Assembly (NCBI GenBank): GCA_964493325.1
Contig: CAZBMD010000002.1
Coordinates: forward strand, 26,416 to 90,415
DNA length: 64,000 nucleotides
Reading direction: 5' to 3'
From: an uncultured Pseudomonadota bacterium
Lineage (GTDB): Bacteria; Babelota; Babeliae; Babelales; RVW-14
The notes below the pieces were generated by a model. That model was not told the DNA's origin. It ran no database searches and saw only the letters and a program-made list of their open reading frames with translations. The stretch's first letter is position 1. The number at the start of each line of letters is the position of its first letter. Of the stretch, positions 14,504 to 64,000 are shown piece after piece. Position numbers and translations under genes: made by a program.

Positions 14504-15988
14504 TCAAAATGATGCTACAAATTTTAGGTAAACTGTCCAGTCATTGCCGATTCCTCTGCTCAGCGCTGTGACGTCACCGCCAAGACCCACTTGAAGATTG
14601 CGGGATGCAGATTTTTTTATTGAATAGAGAACTTCAGAAAAAATTTTATGCTGAGAAACCGTGTCAGATTCAGCATCTTTGATGCGTAGGTCAGTAATCG
14701 AAACAGATGGATTATTGATCGTACGAATAAATTCTTGTTGTTGTGCGTAAAAATCATATCCAACAGCAACAGACCAGCTATCTATGTTGCAGGATACACT
14801 TGTAATAAAGTTGAACACGCCACCTGGACTGACTAAACACTTAAATGATGATGGAAATATGTATTGCTTCATGTAATCATTAATAATATTTCCGTTGTTT
14901 GGATTGTTAGGTGTTACCATAAGAAGGTCTTCTGGCTTAAGAACTTGGTTAAACATAATGAGTCGGTCTTCGTAACCGTCAAATAGTTTATCGTATGATG
15001 CGCGCATCCAAATGGTTGCAATGTCATGAAAGATACCAATTTTTGATTCAAAATAAACACCAAGCCCGTAGTGTCCATTATTCCCAAGGGGGGCATTTAG
15101 CAAATAGTTTCGAATGTTTTGTAAAATACTGACGGCATTAGTTACTAAGGTGTCAGAATCAACGGCTCCAGCTATTTTGTCAACGTTAACGCTAATTGTT
15201 GGGCCGCGTGATAAATTACCGGTTGGAAGAATAGCTTCAAAGCCCACGTCAGTTTGAAAGTTTGTCATATTTAGAGAGTTGATTCCAAGTTTGATGCGTG
15301 TATCACCCATGCCATAGCGGATAATGAGCCCCTCGTCATCATCAAATGCAGCCCCGGGGAAATTCTTAGCTAAAATACTTTTAATTTCTTGTTGGCCACT
15401 GGAGTTAATCCAGAGGTTTCTTTCTGCAAGCAGAAGAGAGGTATGTAATTGAATAGTAAAGGGCCCTTTGGTAGCTCCAAATTGGATAAATGCACCGGCT
15501 TTGCGTTCCTGAATAGTAATATTTCGGAACAGCGGAATAAGTTGGACAATATCTTCTTTGCTAATCATTGATGATGGAAGGAGTTGAATAAGAAAGTTAT
15601 TTTCAAAGTCTTTGACGTCAAGAAGATTTTTGACGGTAACAGGCATCTTGTTGGTTTCATTAAAGAAGAAATTGACCGCTACGCCGCCTTTTTCAAGCGC
15701 TGCGAATTTGTGAGGGAAGTGGTACAAGATATTACGGGCAAAGGGGCTTTGTGTGTGGTTCCAAAGAGGGCTTGTTATGTTGCTGAGAACCAGTGCGATA
15801 AGCGTAGGATCAACAGGCAGGGTCATTGGGCCTCTGGTTTGCTCATACGCCTCGATATCGCTCAAATCGATATTGAATTCGTTGTTATCGCTGCCAAAAA
15901 AGTCAAAATCGTCCAGTTCGTCAGCTGAACAGCTCATGCCGAACATGATTATCGAAGCTAGTAAAGCGTTTTTGAGAAACAAGTTCAT
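14504..15988 (-). CDS. Putative outer-membrane beta-barrel protein (unknown family)
   Basis: Signal peptide MNLFLKNALLASIIMFGMSCSA. Alternating hydrophobic beta-strand-like pattern. Ends in the OMP-type C-terminal signature ..VYLKFVASF (terminal Phe). Confidence 0.55.
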   Translation of the reverse strand: MNLFLKNALLASIIMFGMSCSADELDDFDFFGSDNNEFNIDLSDIEAYEQTRGPMTLPVDPTLIALVLSNITSPLWNHTQSPFARNILYHFPHKFAALEKGGVAVNFFFNETNKMPVTVKNLLDVKDFENNFLIQLLPSSMISKEDIVQLIPLFRNITIQERKAGAFIQFGATKGPFTIQLHTSLLLAERNLWINSSGQQEIKSILAKNFPGAAFDDDEGLIIRYGMGDTRIKLGINSLNMTNFQTDVGFEAILPTGNLSRGPTISVNVDKIAGAVDSDTLVTNAVSILQNIRNYLLNAPLGNNGHYGLGVYFESKIGIFHDIATIWMRASYDKLFDGYEDRLIMFNQVLKPEDLLMVTPNNPNNGNIINDYMKQYIFPSSFKCLVSPGGVFNFITSVSCNIDSWSVAVGYDFYAQQQEFIRTINNPSVSITDLRIKDAESDTVSQHKIFSEVLYSIKKSASRNLQVGLGGDVTALSRGIGNDWTVYLKFVASF

Positions 15989-21077: not shown

Positions 21078-22325
21078 TTATTCTTGTTGATCCTCAGGGG
21101 TTTCAATCGTGTTGTAGAGCTGCAATGCTTTGCGTAAAATTAAATCTTTACGCTCTTTTAAATGATCTTTGGATTCAATATATTTTTCTAATAACGTTGA
21201 AAAACTCATATCAAAATTGAGCATTGCTCGTTTTTCACGTTTGACCTGTTTGTAGACAGGAATGACGCCAACAAGGAACATTGCATGAGCGCACGCTCGT
21301 TGTACGGCAAGCAAATCAACTTTGTCAGTTGAGCCGTCTGCAAGGTGATATAAAATTTTTACAATTGCTTCGTTAAGATCATATTGTTTTAGTGTAGCTA
21401 ATATTTGGGATGTTTGATCAGTTGAACTATTCAGTGTTATTTCAATTTGGATCATTGGTCTTGTTGGAAGCTTTATAACATCGTAAGAGCAAATTTTTGA
21501 TGATCCATGACGTTCGATGTTAACAGAACAAAAACTTTTTTCTTCTTTTCGTTCCCCAAAATCAACGCGCTCTATCGATCCGGAGTAGACAACTGGAGGG
21601 CTTCCTTGTGGATTAAGATTTTGATAGCGATGTAAGTGCCCAAGTGCAACGTAATCAAATTGAGGCAGCGCAAGCTGAGATGGTAAAAATACCGGGTCTG
21701 ATCCAAAAATGGCGCATTTTTCTGATCCAGAAAAAATACCACTGGTGACCGTTAAATGACCAGCAAGGACTGCTGGCATTGTTGTATCAATGTCTTGGGC
21801 AAACTGTGCAATTAATTGTCCTATGCGTTCTGAAAGATATGTTGTTACATCGGAGTGAGATTTAAATCGGTGCGAATCGTGTGTAACGACATTGTTACGG
21901 GCTGGCCATGGAATGCCAACAATTTGAACAGGTCCACTTTTTGTTGGAATAACTTTAAGCTCAGGTCGTGAAAATACGTGAAATCCATCAACGGGTAAAT
22001 AGTCAAAAACATCGAGAGAGTGGGTCTTTCCAAAGCTGAGTGGATGATCATGGTTTCCAACGACAATTGCAACAGGAATATTGGCCGCGTGTAATTTGAG
22101 AAGCTGTGTAACCAAAAGTTTTTGTTGAGTTGGTGTTGGATATGCTGTTTTGTACGCGTCTCCACAAAATAAAAACAAATCAATCTGTTTTTCTATGGCA
22201 GCGTTAACCATGTATTCAAGTGAATTTTTAAAATCCAAAAGACGGGTGTGAATGCCCGTCTTTGGATCGATTTTTCCATAATTCTCAACGCCAAAATGAA
22301 TGTCTGCTGTGTGGAAAAAAATCAT
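21078..22325 (-). CDS. sbcD: SbcD/Mre11-family nuclease (metallophosphoesterase)
   Basis: Phosphoesterase motifs ADIHFG, CGDAYK, GNHD, AGHL and GHLH in canonical order. 415 aa. Confidence 0.85.
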   Translation of the reverse strand: MIFFHTADIHFGVENYGKIDPKTGIHTRLLDFKNSLEYMVNAAIEKQIDLFLFCGDAYKTAYPTPTQQKLLVTQLLKLHAANIPVAIVVGNHDHPLSFGKTHSLDVFDYLPVDGFHVFSRPELKVIPTKSGPVQIVGIPWPARNNVVTHDSHRFKSHSDVTTYLSERIGQLIAQFAQDIDTTMPAVLAGHLTVTSGIFSGSEKCAIFGSDPVFLPSQLALPQFDYVALGHLHRYQNLNPQGSPPVVYSGSIERVDFGERKEEKSFCSVNIERHGSSKICSYDVIKLPTRPMIQIEITLNSSTDQTSQILATLKQYDLNEAIVKILYHLADGSTDKVDLLAVQRACAHAMFLVGVIPVYKQVKREKRAMLNFDMSFSTLLEKYIESKDHLKERKDLILRKALQLYNTIETPEDQQE

Positions 22326-22332
22326 ATGGATT

Positions 22333-23808
22333 CTAGCGATTTTCTTGATGTTCAGTTTCAGTTTTTATTGCGCCACGAAAATTAAATTGACCTTCTTGAG
22401 GGTCAACGTCATTTTTTTTTAAATCTTTTTTCTGCAATTTTTCTTTCATTTTTTTTGCGTAGCCTGCTTTATTTTCTTGCCGCGCTCTTCCAATTGCAAG
22501 GCTTTCTTCTGGGACGTTTTTACTGAGTACTGAGCCTGCAGCTGTATATGAGCCTTTGCCGATGGTAATGGGTGCAACAAGTGTGTTATTGCTGCCAATA
22601 AATGCATTGTCTTGAATGGTTGTTCTGCTTTTTTTAAAGCCATCATAGTTGCATGTAATTGTTCCAGCGCCAATGTTAACGCCTCGTCCTGCATCGGTAT
22701 CACCTATGTATGATAGATGTTTTGCTTTGCTGCTTGCTTCGATAGTACTGTTTTTAACTTCAACAAAATTTCCTATCTCTGAATTGTCACCTAGTGATAC
22801 ATGCTCGCGAATTCGAGCAAACGGACCAACATGTACGTCACAGCCAATTATGCTATCTTGTACAACAGAATGAGAGTGAATGGTACTATTATCTCCAACA
22901 ACGGTGTTCGCAATAATAGAAAAAGCTCCAACAAAACATTCTTCGCCAATCCTTGTTCCGCGGAGCAAGTGAGCGCCTGTACCTATAAATGATCCAGCAC
23001 CAATTTGTACGTCAAGATCGATGTGAATACTTTGCGCTAGTTCAAAGCGAACTCCTTGCAGCATCCAGTGTTTAATCATTTCGGAGCGTTTAATTTGTTC
23101 AACTTCCCACAGCTCTTGTAAAGTATTTACGCCTCTAACGTAATCAAATGGTACAGCTATAGTGTGCACTGGGTAGTTGTTATCACTGGCTTTTTTAATC
23201 AAATCCACAAAGTAGAATTCGCCAGATATTGGATTTTTTTCGATAGTGTTTATGTATTTTTGTAAGAATGCAGTTTTCATCATGTAAATACCTGCATTGA
23301 TGCACGTAATATTTCGTTGTTCTTCTGTGCAATCTTTTTCTTCAATAATCTGGTACATACCGTCTTGTTCTATAACTCGCCCATAACCGGTTGGATCAAT
23401 GACGTGTGTTGTCAAAAAACTGACCGTTGCATCACGCATTTTATGCTCTGTAATTAATTTTTCAATGAGGTCTTTGGTAACAAGAGGAGTATCTCCAGCA
23501 AGAACAAGAATGTTTTCAGTGTCCCATGTTGCCGCAGATAAGGCAACAGCGTGACCTGTTCCTAGCTGTTCAGTTTGATGTATGTAAGTAACTTGTGCAA
23601 TGCTTGCTGAAGTAATTTCTTGTTGCAGTGCATCTGCTTGATATCCAACAATAATGCTCATCGGAATTGCTAATTCCTCAAGAACTTTGAGTGGATAAAG
23701 AACCATTGTTCTTCCACAAATATTGAATAAGAGTTTGCTTTTTTTTGTTTTAAATCGGGTAGCTTTTCCTGCTGCAAGCACTACCGCTCTGGTCTTTAAG
23801 CTATTCAT
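22333..23808 (-). CDS. glmU: Bifunctional UDP-GlcNAc pyrophosphorylase / GlcN-1-P N-acetyltransferase
   Basis: N-terminal LAAGKATRFKTKKSKLL nucleotidyltransferase motif and a C-terminal left-handed beta-helix of hexapeptide repeats. Has an extra ~35-aa Lys/Glu-rich C-terminal tail. Confidence 0.9.
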   Translation of the reverse strand: MNSLKTRAVVLAAGKATRFKTKKSKLLFNICGRTMVLYPLKVLEELAIPMSIIVGYQADALQQEITSASIAQVTYIHQTEQLGTGHAVALSAATWDTENILVLAGDTPLVTKDLIEKLITEHKMRDATVSFLTTHVIDPTGYGRVIEQDGMYQIIEEKDCTEEQRNITCINAGIYMMKTAFLQKYINTIEKNPISGEFYFVDLIKKASDNNYPVHTIAVPFDYVRGVNTLQELWEVEQIKRSEMIKHWMLQGVRFELAQSIHIDLDVQIGAGSFIGTGAHLLRGTRIGEECFVGAFSIIANTVVGDNSTIHSHSVVQDSIIGCDVHVGPFARIREHVSLGDNSEIGNFVEVKNSTIEASSKAKHLSYIGDTDAGRGVNIGAGTITCNYDGFKKSRTTIQDNAFIGSNNTLVAPITIGKGSYTAAGSVLSKNVPEESLAIGRARQENKAGYAKKMKEKLQKKDLKKNDVDPQEGQFNFRGAIKTETEHQENR

Positions 23809-28687: not shown

Positions 28688-29287
28688 ATGTTTGGTCAGT
28701 TGCCAGTGTTACAAAAGTTGGTTAGACAGCTTCAGCACATTCCATATCTAGCGTCAAAAAATGTTTACAAGGTTGCGGCCTATTTTTTGAAGAGCGATAT
28801 TAAAACTGTTGAACAGCTGTGTCGAACAATTTTGGAAGCAAAGCAAACAATCAAATTATGCTCTCGCTGCTTTACATGGACAGAGGGAATGGATATTTGT
28901 GGTATCTGTTCTTCCTCCCGTCGAGACTCTTCTGTGATCTGTGTTGTTGAAACATGGCATGATCTTTTGGCTATTGAAAAAGCTGGAGAGTATCAGGGGC
29001 ATTACCACGTTTTAGGCGGCTCGCTGTGCCCTTTGGAGGGTATAGGGCCAGATAACTTGAGGATTAATGAACTTGTTATTCGTATTGATGCAAGCATCAA
29101 AGAGTTGATTTTTGCAACCAATCCAACGCCAGAGGGTGAAGCAACAGCGAGTTATATTGCTACAAAAATTAGTCATGTACCAGTCTCAATTTCACGGCTT
29201 GCAAGTGGCGTGCCCATTGGCTCTAGTTTAGAGTTTATGGATCGGGTGACGATTGGTAAGGCATTGCAGGGTAGACGACCATTTTGA
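28688..29287 (+). CDS. recR: Recombination protein RecR
   Basis: HhH N-terminus, Cys4 zinc finger CSRCFTWTEGMDICGIC, and a Toprim domain (ICVVE..D..A). 199 aa. Confidence 0.9.
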   Translation: MFGQLPVLQKLVRQLQHIPYLASKNVYKVAAYFLKSDIKTVEQLCRTILEAKQTIKLCSRCFTWTEGMDICGICSSSRRDSSVICVVETWHDLLAIEKAGEYQGHYHVLGGSLCPLEGIGPDNLRINELVIRIDASIKELIFATNPTPEGEATASYIATKISHVPVSISRLASGVPIGSSLEFMDRVTIGKALQGRRPF

Positions 29288-31665
29288 AGCACACAGTGCC
29301 TATTAAAAAACTTTTTCTTTTTATCGTAAGCGTTGCCTTGCACGGCAGCGCTTACGCTCTGTTTAACAATATCGCATCGTCGGTAAAACAACTTTCTGTT
29401 AACAGTATTAGTCAGCATGTTCTGGATAAAGACCATGTTATTTTTCAAGGAGATGTTGAAGTTTTTGTCGATCAGAAGATACATCTGTGGGCTGACACGG
29501 TTGAGGTTGATAAGAAACTAAAAACGCTTACTGCATATGCCGATATTGGTAAAAGTATTGTTGTTGAAAATGATGAAGTCGTTATGCTTGCAACCAAAGT
29601 TTTTTTAGATATTGGAACAAAGACCGGGTACGTTGAGCAGGTCAAAGTGCACATCAATGAGGGTTATTTTTTAGCTGATCGTGCTCAAAAAGATGGTGAT
29701 GACTGGATAATGCACAAGGTGCTCTATACACCATGTGACGCTCCCCATCCTCATTGGCATTTTAAAGCAAGCAAAATGGCAATAGAAGGTAGCTATTTTA
29801 TTAAAGCTTCAAATATTCTTTTTAAGATAGGTCATGTACCCATTTTTATGTTTCCATGGATTATGTTTCCAATTCATGATGGTTCAAAAACGCGTGCTTC
29901 AGCTAAATCTGGTTTTTTGATCCCAAAATTTTCAATTGATTACGAATACGGATTGGGTATCAAGCAGGAATACTATAAATATTTTAGTCCTCACTGTGAT
30001 TCAACCCTTTCAGTGGATTGGCGTGATAAGCGAGGGCTTGTTTTATTTGATGAATTCCGTTGGGCTCGTGCGCCCGAAAATCATTTGCAGGTTAAAGCTC
30101 ATTACGCTATTGCGCGCGATTCATTTGTACAAAAACGCGGTAAAATTTTTAAAGCGACAGATCGGCGTTACTGGATTAACGCAGAAGATTTTAGATCGTC
30201 AGAAAAACTTTTTGATGGAGCGCTTGTCGCGAGTTTGCTGCGGCTTGATTTTGGAACTGATAAGAAGATTGGGTATCACTTTTTTAACAACATTGAGGGC
30301 GTGGATGATTCATTTCATAATAGTTTTCATGTTCGTTCGCTTTGGCAAAGACACCAGATAGAACTAAAAATTGATGACGAAAAAACAACCCGAAAAAAAT
30401 TTCTGGAATTAACTCAAGACGAACTAAGAAAGTGTCAGGTGAAGCCGTTACAGAATACGGTGATTGCTCAAAAAGAATTACTCGACCGTGTGGATGTTAT
30501 ACTTCTTCCTCACATTGAGTGGAATACAGCATATAAATCGTGGGGTAATATGATTGCTTACCGGCACGATTTTTTTATTGATCAGGGAACAGCTCGACAA
30601 GATGAGCGTGAAAAAATATATATAGCAGGTCAGCTTGTCAGTGATCAGCGTATTATCCCACGATGGTCAGCGGATGTTTTTCGGTTGAACTATCGTGGAG
30701 ACATTCGACAGTCTGTGCAGTGCAAAGGTAATACGTTGAGTTTGTGGATTGATCCGTATGTTCAGCTTCGCAGTCAACTTTTAGAGGATGCTCAATTTTC
30801 TAAAAATGTTTTCGAACGACGAGCTTTTGGTCGCGGCGGCTATCGATTATTTTTATCTTCCGGTGCTGAATGGTCTCTTCCAGAGGGAGTTGTTTCGAGC
30901 AACGATGGTTCATATCAGTATTTTTTACATCCACTTTTGAAGTGGGATTATTTACCAAAGTTTTATCAACAACACTGGGTTTATATGGATCGTTGGGATA
31001 GGGCATATCCAACGAACAAGTTAACTTTTCAACTTCGTAATAATATGCAGCTAAAAGATCTATCTGTTGATTTGAATGTGCGTCAGTCTTACGATTTTTA
31101 TAGCCGTTCTGATATTTTTCCTCTTGATCGTGCAGCTATTGATCAGCATATACAGCCCATTCGGTTTGACCTTTCTATGAACAAATCTCCTTATTCTCTG
31201 TTTGTTGCACAAGAGTATGAATGGCGCACTGGAAGACTTTTGCAATCTGAGATGCAGGTTAACTTTTCTCTTGATAAAATAAACCTGAGTGCTGGGTATT
31301 TATTTCAGGATCCTACTATGCAGGTGCAACGAGAGCTTCTTTCAAATATTCCTCATTTCGCTACACTGAGTGTCTCTTTTCCAGTATCTCGATGTGCAAT
31401 GATGCTTTATGATGGACAATTTTATTTAGAAAAATATCCTCATTTTTTTGATATTGCCCACGTTAAGCCATTACTCCATCGTATTCGTCTAGATTATGAT
31501 GGGCATTGTTGGGGTTTTTATATTGGATTTGAAGAGAAAAAATACCGAGAATATGGAAATTGGAAGAAAGAACGTGCAATTGTTTTTTGTTTACGATTGG
31601 AATCGTTAGGTTCATTTGCACAAAAATTTAGGCGCCCTCAATTTTTGAAATTTAATGGAAATTGA
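29284..31665 (+). CDS. lptD: LPS-assembly outer membrane protein LptD (OstA)
   Basis: TTG start overlapping the recR stop. Signal peptide, OstA-like N-terminal domain (VIFQGDVEVFVDQKIHLWADTVEVD..), then a large ~600-aa beta-barrel region. Confidence 0.75.
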   Translation: MKHTVPIKKLFLFIVSVALHGSAYALFNNIASSVKQLSVNSISQHVLDKDHVIFQGDVEVFVDQKIHLWADTVEVDKKLKTLTAYADIGKSIVVENDEVVMLATKVFLDIGTKTGYVEQVKVHINEGYFLADRAQKDGDDWIMHKVLYTPCDAPHPHWHFKASKMAIEGSYFIKASNILFKIGHVPIFMFPWIMFPIHDGSKTRASAKSGFLIPKFSIDYEYGLGIKQEYYKYFSPHCDSTLSVDWRDKRGLVLFDEFRWARAPENHLQVKAHYAIARDSFVQKRGKIFKATDRRYWINAEDFRSSEKLFDGALVASLLRLDFGTDKKIGYHFFNNIEGVDDSFHNSFHVRSLWQRHQIELKIDDEKTTRKKFLELTQDELRKCQVKPLQNTVIAQKELLDRVDVILLPHIEWNTAYKSWGNMIAYRHDFFIDQGTARQDEREKIYIAGQLVSDQRIIPRWSADVFRLNYRGDIRQSVQCKGNTLSLWIDPYVQLRSQLLEDAQFSKNVFERRAFGRGGYRLFLSSGAEWSLPEGVVSSNDGSYQYFLHPLLKWDYLPKFYQQHWVYMDRWDRAYPTNKLTFQLRNNMQLKDLSVDLNVRQSYDFYSRSDIFPLDRAAIDQHIQPIRFDLSMNKSPYSLFVAQEYEWRTGRLLQSEMQVNFSLDKINLSAGYLFQDPTMQVQRELLSNIPHFATLSVSFPVSRCAMMLYDGQFYLEKYPHFFDIAHVKPLLHRIRLDYDGHCWGFYIGFEEKKYREYGNWKKERAIVFCLRLESLGSFAQKFRRPQFLKFNGN

Positions 31666-60210: not shown

Positions 60211-61182
60211 GTGGCACAAGCATCGGATGCATATCTTCGGTCGTTCAAAGTAGCCATTATTGGCGCTGGGTTTGTTGGCAGTACAACGGCTTATGCTCTC
60301 ATGCTACAGGGAATATCTTCAGAAATAGCACTCATTGATATCAATAAAGAAAAAGCTGATGGTGAAGCTCTTGATCTTCAGCATTGTCTTCAGTTTACAC
60401 ATGCAACTCATATTGTTTCTGGTAGTTCTTTTGACCTTGTAAAGGATGCATCAGTGGTGGTCATTACTGCTGGTAAGGCGCAGTCTCCTGGAGAGACAAG
60501 GACCAATCTTTTAGAGGCAAATGTTAATCTTTTTAAAACGATTATTCCTAAAATTGTTCAAGTAAACAAAGACTGCATAATCTTAGTGGTTACAAACCCG
60601 CTTGATGTTTTGACTTACGTTGCGTGGAAACTATCAGGGTTTCCTTCGTGTCGCGTTCTTGGCGCTGGAACAGTTCTTGACACAGCGCGCTTGCGTTTTT
60701 TAATTGGTCAGCATTTTGACATTAGTCCCAAAGATATTACAGCTCATATTTTAGGTGAGCACGGTGATTCAGAGTTTATTTGGAAAAGTCATGCAAATAT
60801 AGCAGGAGTGCCATTGAGTAGTTTTGCGGGATATTCTGATGGTCTTATGAATCAGTTTCATCAACAGACAAAAAATGCTGCATACCAGATTATCAATAAA
60901 AAAGGTGCAACATATTATGCAATTGCCCTTGTTGTTGCAAAAATTGTTCGTGCCATAATGCTTGATCAATCTAGGGTTTTTACTGTCTCTTCACGCCTTG
61001 ATAATTACCAAGGAATCAGTGACGTTTGTCTGAGTGTTCCTACTATTGTTCGAAGAAGTGGCGTGTGCCAGCAGCTTGAGCTTAATTTAAGTCAAGACGA
61101 AAAAAAATTATTTGCTACATCTGCTGAAAAAGTTGCACAAGATATCAAAGTGAGCTTAAAGTTTTTGAACAATAAATTATGA
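60211..61182 (+). CDS. ldh: L-lactate dehydrogenase (LDH/MDH superfamily)
   Basis: KVAIIGAGFVGSTTAYAL Rossmann motif and catalytic GEHGDS. The substrate loop AGKAQSPGETR has Gln at the LDH-discriminating position (MDH has Arg). GTG start with GGGAGA SD. Confidence 0.8.
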   Translation: MAQASDAYLRSFKVAIIGAGFVGSTTAYALMLQGISSEIALIDINKEKADGEALDLQHCLQFTHATHIVSGSSFDLVKDASVVVITAGKAQSPGETRTNLLEANVNLFKTIIPKIVQVNKDCIILVVTNPLDVLTYVAWKLSGFPSCRVLGAGTVLDTARLRFLIGQHFDISPKDITAHILGEHGDSEFIWKSHANIAGVPLSSFAGYSDGLMNQFHQQTKNAAYQIINKKGATYYAIALVVAKIVRAIMLDQSRVFTVSSRLDNYQGISDVCLSVPTIVRRSGVCQQLELNLSQDEKKLFATSAEKVAQDIKVSLKFLNNKL

Positions 61183-61416
61183 TTTTTGCTGGATATAGCC
61201 TTTTAGCCGTTGTTTTAATAGAGTGTCGAAAACGTTTTATCAAAATAAAATTGAATTTTTTTACAAATCTTTACAAATATACAAGGCGTTACTAGACTCA
61301 AGTTTCAATTATATTATGGGCATTTGAGAGAGTTTGTGGACAACATAAATTCATAAACGTACTGGCTACTTTGGAGAGTAGTTACCAGGCGTAGTGTTGG
61401 AAAAAGGAGAAAAGTA

Positions 61417-64000
61417 ATGAATAGAGCGTTTCGTGCGCTTGCACTTGCAGGCGTTCTTCTTGGATCTTTAAACCCCCTTATGTGTCGAATAAATTTTAGC
61501 AGTCAGCAGTCAGGTATTGCCGTTGATGCTGGCGCGCGTTTTAATGTGAGTTCCTCTAATCTCGCGATTGATGGAACGTTGCATGGGGATAATGCGGCTG
61601 CTATTTCTGGGAATGATATCTCGTTCAATCGAGGAGTTCTTGATCAGAATGGAACAGAAGTCGAAATGACTGGTTTTTATGTTCCAACGGGAAGCGATGC
61701 TCTTGAGCTTCGTGGCAATGGTCGATTTAAGGCTGAGCCAGGAACCGTTATTCATCAACTTACCTTACTCATGACAGGTAATAGACTTGAAGGGCAGCCT
61801 CTTTTTCAGCAGCCTATTCTGCTGACCGATTCAAGCACAAGCCTAACCATTGCGATTCAAAATAAATTAAATCAGGATATTTCGTTGAACGGTGGAACGC
61901 TTCAGCTTGATGATGATTTACGGTTAACCGATGACTCAAGAGTTAACGGTCCGGGTATTGTTAAACTAAATAAGCGACAACTGAGTCTTGGAGGTTTTTA
62001 CTCAGCTCCATGGACTGGTGCTCTTGTTTTTGATCATGCAACAGATGTTGCTCTGAATGGACATGTGCAATTAGATGGACAGTGGACGTTTAGTGGTACA
62101 AGCAATCTGAATGGTCATGGATCAGTTCTTGATCTGACCAATGGTGGAACAATTTTTGTAACAAATGGAAGTACTCTTTATCTCAATGATGTCTATATCA
62201 AAGGATTAGGTGATCCATATAATTATGGGAAAATAGTTTTTGGAAATCATAATTCCTGCATTCGCACATCAGGGTCGTATCTTGAATTCGAACAAGACTA
62301 TAATGTTCCAACCGGTGGATTTTATGTTGATGGCGACACGACTTTTGTTCTGAAAGAAAATAATCTGATATTTGATCAACACGCGTCGCTTACTGTTGAT
62401 GGTGCTACATTGTGGCTTGATGTTAATAATTTTGATTTAACAACTCCTGGTCAACTACGCGTGCCGCTTCCTGTATTTGTTGAGCATGTTTGGAGTACTT
62501 CTGGTGTTGCTTATGATACAGCTGTTGGAACATTAACGCTTCTCAATACAGGGACAATTAAAGAAACGGCTGATAAGTCTTTGGTTGCTGCATCATTTGG
62601 ATGTGATGACGATTGTTTGTTGCTGAGTGGGTCGATTACAACAACGCTCAATTTGAAGAAGAGTGTGCTTGTCCCAGCAGATAAAATTATTAAAGTTGAT
62701 GCAAATGTCTGCATAAATGGTAATGGTCAGACTGTATACTTTTCTCATCCAAAGCATCCTCAGTTTATTGTGTCAGAAAATGTTACTGTGATCCTGAAAA
62801 ATATTGATTTTACACGGATCCGTTCAAATACTTTTGATTTGCGCCCTGGTGCTCGTGTTTATGTTGAGCGTTGTGTAGGCTTTGAGTTGTCAGAAGATAT
62901 GACATTTTCGTCAGGCCGCTTGAAAGTTCTTGATATCCCTGGTGGTAATATTTTCAATATTCGTGGTCTTGCCGGAAGAAAACGATTCTTGGTTAAACCG
63001 CTTATCCCTACTCACAATATTCTTGATCTTGGGCAAAATTCTATTTTGCTTAATGCTATTGAGTTTAGTGGGTTTGATTCAGTGCTTCATCGCAATGCAG
63101 AGCTTTTTGGAACATTTGGTCTTTCGGGTGAAAGTGCCGCTGCTATTGATGCGGATACTGCAATGAATTTCTTTATTGAAGGAATAGGCAATGAGATATT
63201 GCTCCTTAATGATGAAATAAACCTTTCAGGAGCAATCACATTTGGTGATTTTGCTGCTAACTTCCTGCATATCAAGACTGCAATTACAGCACCTATTCTT
63301 GCAAAGCCTGACGTTAATATTGGGTTTCCTCTTCTTGTGCTTTCTGGTGACCCAGGAATCTTTGTTGCGTCAGAATTTGGTGAAGCAGGTGTCTTTCTTG
63401 ATGATCTAAGTATTGCCATTCAAAATGATGCAGGGAACTCGTTTGTTTTTGATGTCAATTCTTTCCTTGTTTGTAAAAATTTACAAATTCTTGGCAATGA
63501 CATTAAGCAGTCTTCACCTCTATTTGGAGTTGAGGCATTGAGTATCTTAGGTGGAAAAATTAATCCATCATTTGTAAGATCTCCAGCGCTTGCTCATGAG
63601 TTCTCAAGTCGTCCTGTTTCAGCAATTCATTTGATGAGAGAGCGTGAACGACAAGCGTTTGCTGCGTCAAGTGCTTCGGCAAAGGCTCAATCCTCTCATT
63701 ACCCAACAAGTCACAAAAATGATAAGAAAAAAGAGAATAAGTCAAAAAAGAAAAAATCAAAAACTCATCATCGTTATGCAGAATTGCTTGGTCTAGAAAT
63801 ACAAGATTTTGATTTTGATGATTATGTGATTCGTGGTCAGAAAATAAAACGGCGAAGAGACTTTATTCAAGTTCCTGCTGACGAAGATCTTGACGTTATT
63901 TACGATGGAACGCTTATCATCCCTACCGAGGAGGTTACTGGTAATGTACTTGTTCGTAATGGTGGACGTATCGAAAACTTTCAAGTTGATCCAGATGTTG
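61417..64000 (+). CDS. Large secreted beta-helix/adhesin-like protein, 3' end outside window (>861 codons)
   Basis: Hand translation of frame +1 from ATG 61417 (AGGAG 8 nt upstream) finds no stop up to base 64000. Signal-like N-terminus MNRAFRALALAGVLLGSL. Gly/Asn/Thr/Asp-rich with recurring NGGT[LI].., FxxN and ..L.L.D. rung-like motifs. Absent from the ORF track because there is no stop in the window. Confidence 0.8.
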   Translation, partial: MNRAFRALALAGVLLGSLNPLMCRINFSSQQSGIAVDAGARFNVSSSNLAIDGTLHGDNAAAISGNDISFNRGVLDQNGTEVEMTGFYVPTGSDALELRGNGRFKAEPGTVIHQLTLLMTGNRLEGQPLFQQPILLTDSSTSLTIAIQNKLNQDISLNGGTLQLDDDLRLTDDSRVNGPGIVKLNKRQLSLGGFYSAPWTGALVFDHATDVALNGHVQLDGQWTFSGTSNLNGHGSVLDLTNGGTIFVTNGSTLYLNDVYIKGLGDPYNYGKIVFGNHNSCIRTSGSYLEFEQDYNVPTGGFYVDGDTTFVLKENNLIFDQHASLTVDGATLWLDVNNFDLTTPGQLRVPLPVFVEHVWSTSGVAYDTAVGTLTLLNTGTIKETADKSLVAASFGCDDDCLLLSGSITTTLNLKKSVLVPADKIIKVDANVCINGNGQTVYFSHPKHPQFIVSENVTVILKNIDFTRIRSNTFDLRPGARVYVERCVGFELSEDMTFSSGRLKVLDIPGGNIFNIRGLAGRKRFLVKPLIPTHNILDLGQNSILLNAIEFSGFDSVLHRNAELFGTFGLSGESAAAIDADTAMNFFIEGIGNEILLLNDEINLSGAITFGDFAANFLHIKTAITAPILAKPDVNIGFPLLVLSGDPGIFVASEFGEAGVFLDDLSIAIQNDAGNSFVFDVNSFLVCKNLQILGNDIKQSSPLFGVEALSILGGKINPSFVRSPALAHEFSSRPVSAIHLMRERERQAFAASSASAKAQSSHYPTSHKNDKKKENKSKKKKSKTHHRYAELLGLEIQDFDFDDYVIRGQKIKRRRDFIQVPADEDLDVIYDGTLIIPTEEVTGNVLVRNGGRIENFQVDPDV

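Follow-up and report, generated by a model that had tools for sequence, protein, structure and literature searches.

At the downstream end of a 64,000-nucleotide stretch of DNA (contig CAZBMD010000002.1, positions 26,416 to 90,415 of the forward strand; the whole stretch is called the window below), an open frame starts at position 61417 and reaches the last base without a stop. The earlier note on this DNA, made from the letters alone, read the frame as a giant secreted beta-helix protein of the autotransporter or chlamydial polymorphic membrane protein (Pmp) type. The locus raises the question of what this protein is, by which route it might leave the cell and what it might do there. We observed that the frame belongs to a 1309-codon gene, whose product (the giant protein) is predicted to form three parallel beta-helices and is found beside a second protein, d1, with the termini of a plausible outer-membrane protein. 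On balance, we lean towards a surface fibre or adhesin that would be served by d1 as a dedicated outer-membrane partner, in an arrangement analogous to type V secretion and not homologous to it.

The open frame is the 5′ part of a 1309-codon gene

Translation of the + strand from ATG 61417 to base 64000 (frame +1) gave 861 codons and zero stops. An in-frame TAA lies upstream at 61354-61356, ATG 61417 is the first ATG, GTG or TTG after it, and the AGGAG Shine–Dalgarno motif that had been ascribed to this start was located at 61405-61409, 7 nt 5′ of the ATG. A search of 5.8 billion proteins returned the exact product, a public protein of 1309 aa (P0001) with 100% identity over the 861 aa. The uninterrupted frame described in the earlier note is therefore a real gene, which is cut by the window edge.

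Another member of the same protein cluster, P0185, is identical to P0001 at 1307 of 1309 residues and is encoded on the 1.35-Mb metagenomic contig Ga0558121_00031. The locus that we took from this contig, L018, comes from a near-identical strain (99.66% nucleotide identity to the window over 12,584 bp), and for this reason it serves as the continuation of the locus past the window. The C-terminus beyond base 64000 was recovered through L018 and P0001: there are 448 further codons, and the window holds the 5′ two-thirds of the gene. Three independent assemblies agree on the 1309-aa product and on an identical stop.

As had been noted, this is the largest gene in the window, where the largest complete open reading frame (ORF) elsewhere has 793 aa, compared with 861 codons and the continuation. 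The short shadow ORFs in other frames (61510..61758, 62511..62714, 62930..63166 and 63087..63419) are all present in the mechanical ORF list, and every peptide motif quoted previously was found in the translation. The word "polymorphic", in contrast, does not suit the gene. Over 2584 bp of the giant ORF, there are 5 differences between the window and L018, and 4 of these are synonymous. This amounts to 0.19%, compared with 0.38% over the 10 kb upstream. Between the strains, the gene is neither hypervariable nor polymorphic, and it changes at a lower rate than the upstream ribosomal genes.

The giant protein is predicted to consist of three beta-helices and a conserved tail

The layout of the giant protein is given below; model values are predicted local distance difference test (pLDDT) scores from AlphaFold2.

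61417..61485, + strand: start codon and Sec-type signal peptide, residues 1-23 (MNRAFRALALAGVLLGSLNPLMC, followed by R)
61504..62472, + strand: beta-helix A, residues ~30-352; pLDDT mostly 85-97, short strands
62494..62631, + strand: helical insert or hinge between A and B, residues ~360-405, including GCDDDC
62659..63561, + strand: beta-helix B, residues ~415-715; pLDDT mostly 90-97
63583..63696, + strand: long alpha-helix after beta-helix B, residues 723-760 (modelled as helices 723-729 and 736-760)
63700..63870, + strand: Lys/Arg-rich disordered linker, residues 762-818 (...KNDKKKENKSKKKKSK...); pLDDT <50
63889..64000, + strand: start of beta-helix C, from residue ~825 onward, running past the window to ~1230
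Beyond the window: conserved 80-aa all-beta tail, residues ~1230-1309, ending [ND]GxRx

The model of the 861-aa window part, built with the family alignment, has a mean pLDDT of 83.2, with residues 30-720 mostly above 90 and strands of 3-6 residues. The model of residues 800-1309 reached a pLDDT of 87.9 and a predicted template modelling score of 0.88, again with short strands throughout; the median strand length in the models is 4 residues, and the C-terminal model contains a single strand of at least 9 residues. The hinge is modelled with helices at 361-370, 387-393 and 399-403, and its pLDDT falls below 50 at 386-396. In the tail motif the G and the R are invariant, and the giant protein ends with ...NGVRS.

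When both models were compared with the PDB using Foldseek, the tops of the lists were right-handed parallel beta-helices exclusively. The best matches of the window part were two-domain alginate lyases of polysaccharide lyase family 6 (PL6; E=1.9e-3 to 3e-2), while those of residues 800-1309 were TibA, Ag43, pertactin and pectate lyases, with PfbA and tapirin also listed. EspP/Hbp and tailspikes were further matches across the models, and the comparison with BFVD returned giant-virus fibre proteins, phage appendages and pectate lyases. These models support a giant protein built of right-handed parallel beta-helix rods of the pectate-lyase-like fold class, in agreement with the beta-solenoid composition proposed earlier. 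In profile-profile alignments with hhalign, helix A matched helix B with a probability of 95.5% (E=1.4e-8) and helix C with a probability of 89.5% (E=2e-6). These alignments indicate a distant relationship among the three helices and none between them and the tail.

Two compositional claims fared less well. The low charge that had been described for more than 800 residues is not uniform: residues ~721-820, which form the alpha-helix and the disordered linker, contain 23% K+R. The "several FxxN" elements are at chance level (6 in the full protein compared with 5.2 ± 2.1 in shuffled sequences). Searches with the window part, the full protein and the family profiles gave zero Pfam, NCBIfam or PDB sequence matches.

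The recovered C-terminus does not have the features of an autotransporter or a Pmp protein

The signal-like N-terminus is supported. Residues 2-16 are helical in the model, the hydrophobic core has a Kyte–Doolittle value of 2.29, and 28 of 31 relatives have a core of this kind; the remaining three look like truncated gene calls. The N-terminus of the giant protein has no lipobox, and its Cys is not conserved.

The assignment to the autotransporter or Pmp type did not survive recovery of the C-terminus. Residues 862-1309 are modelled as the third beta-helix and the all-beta tail, with no 12-stranded barrel, and no autotransporter, Pmp or two-partner secretion (TPS) model of Pfam or NCBIfam matched any family member. 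Neither the autotransporter barrel PF03797 nor the Chlam_PMP family PF02415 was detected in P0001 and its 30 relatives even at E<=5, and the tetrapeptide GGA[ILV] occurs 0 times in the full giant protein. In Pfam and motif scans, neither the TPS domain (PF05860) nor its motifs NPNL and NPNGI were found; motif scanning of the giant protein found no GGxGxD motif of the RTX type, and its signal-like N-terminus likewise sets it apart from type I RTX adhesins, which have no N-terminal signal peptide; and the type IX secretion C-terminal domain (TIGR04183-type), PEP-CTERM and LPXTG were all absent in NCBIfam searches of the full-length protein and in motif scans. A C-terminal aromatic residue (F, W or Y) was seen in only 1 of 30 family members. 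Judged by its sequence, the giant protein appears to lack every known export or anchoring module tested beyond the Sec-type N-terminus.

A second gene, d1, accompanies the long form of the family

In L018, four genes follow one another on one strand in an operon-like order: the giant gene, d1 (619 aa) after 18 bp, d2 (688 aa) after another 66 bp and d3 (1,089 aa) after a further 33 bp. The products of d2 and d3 are paralogous to helices A and B, and d1 belongs to an unrelated family. We observed d1 on the same strand, 3′ of the form that bears the C-domain, at each of the 11 independent loci whose sequence extends far enough downstream; one of these loci has two such pairs. Among the fetched loci, forms without the C-domain sit in tandem arrays.

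The d1 protein has a signal peptide, a Lys/Glu/Arg-rich segment of ~90-190 aa and a conserved domain of ~430 aa; the charged segment gave a faint, composition-driven TolA-like match (E=0.023). All of 21 d1 members share the terminal Phe, which lies within the motif YTFAGxNVPKxF...[YH][SA]F. Outer-membrane barrels have as their classic assembly signal a terminal Phe that is preceded by an alternating aromatic strand. On the strength of these termini, it is plausible that d1 is an outer-membrane protein. Two large homolog searches, one with a single d1 sequence and one with the profile, returned unannotated Dependentiae proteins or low-complexity noise alone, and POTRA, ShlB and Omp85 (PF03865, PF08479, PF01103) had no match in the 21 d1 members at E<=5.

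Some observations were made on the neighbours of this pair. One d1 homolog (P0227, from JGI) is named "actin-related protein" by its source; our sequence analyses give no support to this name, which seems to be spurious and automatically assigned. In a second Dependentiae clade (L005 and L004), a gene for 402-443 aa with weak helical or coiled-coil-type matches is located between the giant gene and d1. The d3 gene (L018 17975-21244, ~10.5 kb past the window end) contains an array of near-identical repeats of ~33 aa (LRLTTNNSNALLFCCKNLSNSLLFDSKNLSNTI...), placed between the A-type and B-type modules at residues ~380-780; the length of this array could vary between strains.

The giant protein belongs to a large family of Dependentiae

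The protein search retrieved ~50 relatives of P0001, and the named ones among them are all annotated as "hypothetical protein", from Candidatus Dependentiae, TM6 or Babeliales. The source organism of the window is a Dependentiae (TM6/Babelota) bacterium, and the earlier assumption of a host-associated bacterium was right, as the phylum is host-dependent (PMC4776705, PMC6561590). An exhaustive hidden Markov model search with the N-terminal profile reached 2,363 representative clusters (50% identity) at E<=1e-3, and 1,174 of these score E<=1e-30. Paralogs, which the earlier note had suggested counting, do exist, as the tandem d2 and d3 genes and the multi-copy loci demonstrate; in the metagenome loci, there are several beta-helix paralogs per contig.

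Three architectures were observed: single units of ~670-740 aa, long forms of ~1,300 aa and giants of 1,600-4,562 aa. The giants alternate A-type and B-type modules, up to 17 in all, with the A module recurring 8-16 times. Fibrillar surface proteins typically expand by such a multiplication of modules. The biggest members, P0051 (4562 aa) and P0187 (5208 aa), with many repeated beta-helix modules, come from contigs of 301-420 kb and rank among the largest proteins in their small genomes.

Within the family, conservation is highest in the module of helix A (GQPLF, NGGxLxLxDDL, NGNGxxLDL, TVDGxTLWLD). The invariant columns of the alignment consist almost entirely of structural residues (Gly, Asn, Leu, Trp, Phe and Pro), and no invariant Lys, Arg, His or Glu was found among the conserved columns. 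All 31 relatives have a basic linker, which measures 40-133 aa. The sole recurrent Pfam family was PF20585, "pectate lyase-like adhesive domain", with weak matches in 3 of 31 members (best E=7.5e-5); all are below the Pfam threshold, and the window protein itself is unmatched. Other Pfam matches on the giants P0051 and P0052 (PEPCK_GTP, DUF3438, CinA and others) were rejected as repeat-summation artefacts, because each had zero or one short matched stretch of its own.

We found no description of this beta-helix family in the Dependentiae literature. Beta-helical surface proteins themselves are well known, but this family is without a Pfam model or a characterised member. It is also carried by the loci L001, L002, L007 and L009 (CAYSDC01, CAYVQB01, CAZFDQ01), which are titled "uncultured Pseudomonadota bacterium". 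The ribosomal operons of L001 and L002 show 68-83% protein identity to that of the window, and these records are probably mislabelled Dependentiae bins.

Surface fibre, enzyme or envelope component

We favour, by a modest degree of confidence, the surface fibre or adhesin with d1 as its partner. In the proposed mechanism, the giant protein would cross the inner membrane through Sec, and d1 would help to pass it across, or to tether it to, an outer membrane poor in lipopolysaccharide (LPS), possibly by contacting the conserved C-terminal tail or the basic linker. The conserved type II secretion system of the phylum might offer an alternative route across the outer membrane. Once outside, the giant protein may project as a rigid, jointed fibre that touches the protist host or other surfaces. 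An adhesive or fibre role is preferred over an enzymatic one because the conserved columns are structural, the modules multiply and a PF20585 signal is present; a pectate lyase-like adhesive class has been discussed for fibrillar adhesins (PMC9210967).

Several points weigh against this reading. Since the matches to known folds are weak (best E=1.4e-3, TM <=0.27), they support the fold class and not homology to any specific member. The number of amphipathic strands in d1 (17) is no higher than in shuffled sequences (19.3 ± 2.5), whereas an OmpA control exceeded its shuffles, and the count therefore gives no support for a barrel. No relatives of d1 were found in Pfam (searched with 5 orthologs and 21 members), in NCBIfam or in the PDB profile search. 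The adjacency of the giant gene and d1 could reflect co-expression and not transport, and phylum-wide single-copy conservation together with low strain variation would be compatible with a structural role in the envelope too.

The other explanations differ widely in how well they account for these data. In a classical type Va autotransporter or Pmp-like protein, the passenger would be exported by its own C-terminal barrel. A signal peptide with a beta-helical body, the autotransporter passengers among the best fold matches and a host-associated bacterium are what one would expect of it. However, a third beta-helix with an 80-aa tail stands in the place of the barrel, PF03797 and PF02415 are unmatched, GGA[ILV] is missing, FxxN is at chance, aromatic ends are nearly absent in the family and strain variation is slight. 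Membership in this class is refuted, and the identical stop in the three assemblies argues against a mis-assembled C-terminus; we give this explanation almost no credence. Type Vb two-partner secretion, with the giant protein as the TpsA exoprotein and d1 as the TpsB transporter, would explain why a beta-helical gene adjoins one for a signal-peptide protein of ~550-675 aa with a C-terminal Phe like that of outer-membrane proteins. But the TPS domain and both of its motifs are absent, d1 shows no POTRA, ShlB or Omp85 match and has a charged low-complexity segment in the POTRA position. The exoprotein-first gene order is also less common for TPS systems. We consider this explanation very unlikely.

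Beta-helix lyases are classic cargo of type II secretion, and the giant protein might be a secreted polysaccharide-degrading enzyme (pectate- or alginate-lyase-like, or a glycosidase) that is released by this system onto host or environmental glycans. The PL6 alginate lyases head the fold matches of the window part, pectate lyases recur, and the core genes of TM6 encode type II secretion components, two copies of GspD among them (PMC4776705). Yet these lyases match with poor E-values and TM-scores, and adhesins do just as well; there is no Pfam match of the CAZy type, no invariant Lys, Arg, His or Glu hints at a catalytic or Ca2+ site, and tandem growth to 8-17 modules is unusual among enzymes. 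An enzyme is improbable, if less so than two-partner secretion. A structural component of the envelope (a coat, an S-layer-like lattice or a periplasm-spanning scaffold) that offsets the degenerate, LPS-poor outer membrane, and is not a host-binding adhesin, remains a serious rival, although we rate it well short of probable. Orthologs of the long form occur across the phylum and agree in length, architecture and synteny, the gene adjoins highly expressed housekeeping operons, and the few strain-level changes are mostly synonymous. Both the giant protein and d1 have long basic or charged segments, with the faint TolA-like match in d1, and loss of LPS synthesis has been reported in the phylum (PMC4776705, PMC6561590). 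On the other hand, the many shorter and multi-module paralogs, whose number varies by genome, come closer to an adaptive surface repertoire than to a fixed scaffold.

Returning to the surface fibre with d1 as its partner, a more far-reaching form of this proposal would be that the long form and d1 make up an unrecognised export or anchoring system of the whole phylum, in which a charged arm of d1 that spans the periplasm recognises the tail or the linker and displays the triple-beta-helix fibre on a membrane without LPS. We regard this as speculative and rather unlikely.

Comparison with known systems

Like the type Va passengers (pertactin, Ag43, TibA, EspP/Hbp), the giant protein combines a Sec signal with a long right-handed parallel beta-helix with a high content of Gly, Asn, Thr and Asp; its best structural matches include these passengers, and a surface or adhesive role is likely for both. 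Unlike them, it has no 12-stranded C-terminal barrel, autochaperone or PF03797 match, it is split into three beta-helices by a hinge and a basic linker, and a separate d1 would replace the fused translocator. With the chlamydial Pmp proteins (PF02415) it shares membership in a large beta-helical, multi-paralog family of an obligately host-associated bacterium, but it is unrelated to them in sequence, lacks their tetrapeptide, barrel and Pfam signature, has FxxN at the level of chance and is non-polymorphic between strains. The type Vb systems (FHA, EtpA and CdrA with their TpsB transporters) likewise place a beta-helical exoprotein with fibre-like modules beside a dedicated, in our case probable, outer-membrane protein. 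As the TPS domain and motifs are missing from the giant protein and POTRA/Omp85 is undetectable in d1, the likeness is one of logic and not of demonstrable homology.

The PL6 alginate and chondroitin lyases (AlyGC, BcAlyPL6, Patl3640), as the best Foldseek matches of the window product, resemble it in having two beta-helix domains in tandem, but differ in sequence (~10% identity, TM ~0.13-0.15, no sequence-profile match) and in that no catalytic-type residues are conserved in the giant protein. The PF20585 adhesins (the binding region of the L. reuteri SRRP, and PfbA) are similar in their beta-solenoid adhesive modules, with PfbA and tapirin among the fold matches (PMC9210967), whereas they are mostly Gram-positive and wall-anchored and the giant protein has no LPXTG.

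Genomic setting of the giant gene

Upstream of the giant gene, the str/S10/spc/alpha ribosomal operon is followed by rpoA and rplQ and then by the gene for L-lactate dehydrogenase (ldh). Two features lie directly before the open frame:

60211..61182, + strand: L-lactate dehydrogenase gene (TIGR01771, E=1.5e-110), the upstream neighbour of the giant gene
61183..61416, + strand: intergenic leader of 234 bp with two weak sigma-70-like sites and AGGAG

We observed ldh directly 5′ of the long form in L001, L002, L003, L008, L015, L016/17 and L018-20. In L016 (8815-15955), ldh, the long form and d1 stay joined though the ribosomal operon is inverted to the other side, and the same trio is found in L015, L008, L003, L001 and L002; the linkage of ldh to this putative surface-protein cluster is a lasting one.

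The sigma-70-like sites of the leader (61270-61298 and 61324-61351) are consensus matches only, and the scan found 4 such sites compared with 1.6 ± 1.0 expected. The leader matched no Rfam family and shows 0 differences in its 234 bp between the window and L018. A terminator-like hairpin (61435-61454; stem of 8 bp with 5 G-C pairs and a T-rich tail) falls within the codons of the signal peptide; chance is its most likely origin, because the scan expects 0.6 ± 0.8 per region. The G+C content is ~0.39, uniform across the giant gene and its neighbours, and matches the surrounding genome.

Further genes were noted at or around these loci. Just 3′ of the beta-helix cluster, L018 encodes a 663-aa protein with faint ankyrin-repeat matches (21317-23308, - strand); ankyrin proteins have been proposed as host-manipulation effectors of Dependentiae (PMC6561590). 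In the second clade, five genes in divergent orientation form a conserved block that precedes the long form (L005 2147-9731 and L004 2460-9788, both - strand), with sizes of ~420/356, 296/315, 352/320, 1013/1014 and 452/433 aa in L005/L004; the three L005 genes that were scanned (419, 296 and 1013 aa) had no Pfam match. Within the window, the ORFs 29284-31665 (+ strand; 793 aa, just 3′ of yidC) and 14504-15988 (- strand; 494 aa) did not match any Pfam family at E<=1e-5. A tblastn search of the window with P0001 matched its own gene alone, and these two ORFs are unrelated to the beta-helix family.

Implications for the biology of Dependentiae

The Dependentiae form a widespread phylum whose members live in protists as obligate intracellular parasites. 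To our knowledge, almost nothing is known of how they attach to and enter their hosts, or of how they build an LPS-poor envelope. With its 2,363 clusters, the beta-helix family may be one of the largest of the phylum without a Pfam model, and it merits a Pfam entry as well as structural and localisation studies in cultivable Dependentiae (Chromulinavorax, Babela or Vermiphilus, for example). If the giant protein is a structural component, it would bear on how a diderm envelope works without LPS. If the giant protein and d1 form a surface-display system, they would be concrete candidates for a role in host contact, and a new export route for beta-helices would be at hand. Should the pair indeed represent a phylum-wide export or anchoring system, it would be a functional analogue of type V secretion made from unrelated parts, serving thousands of paralogous fibres in the contact with protist hosts.

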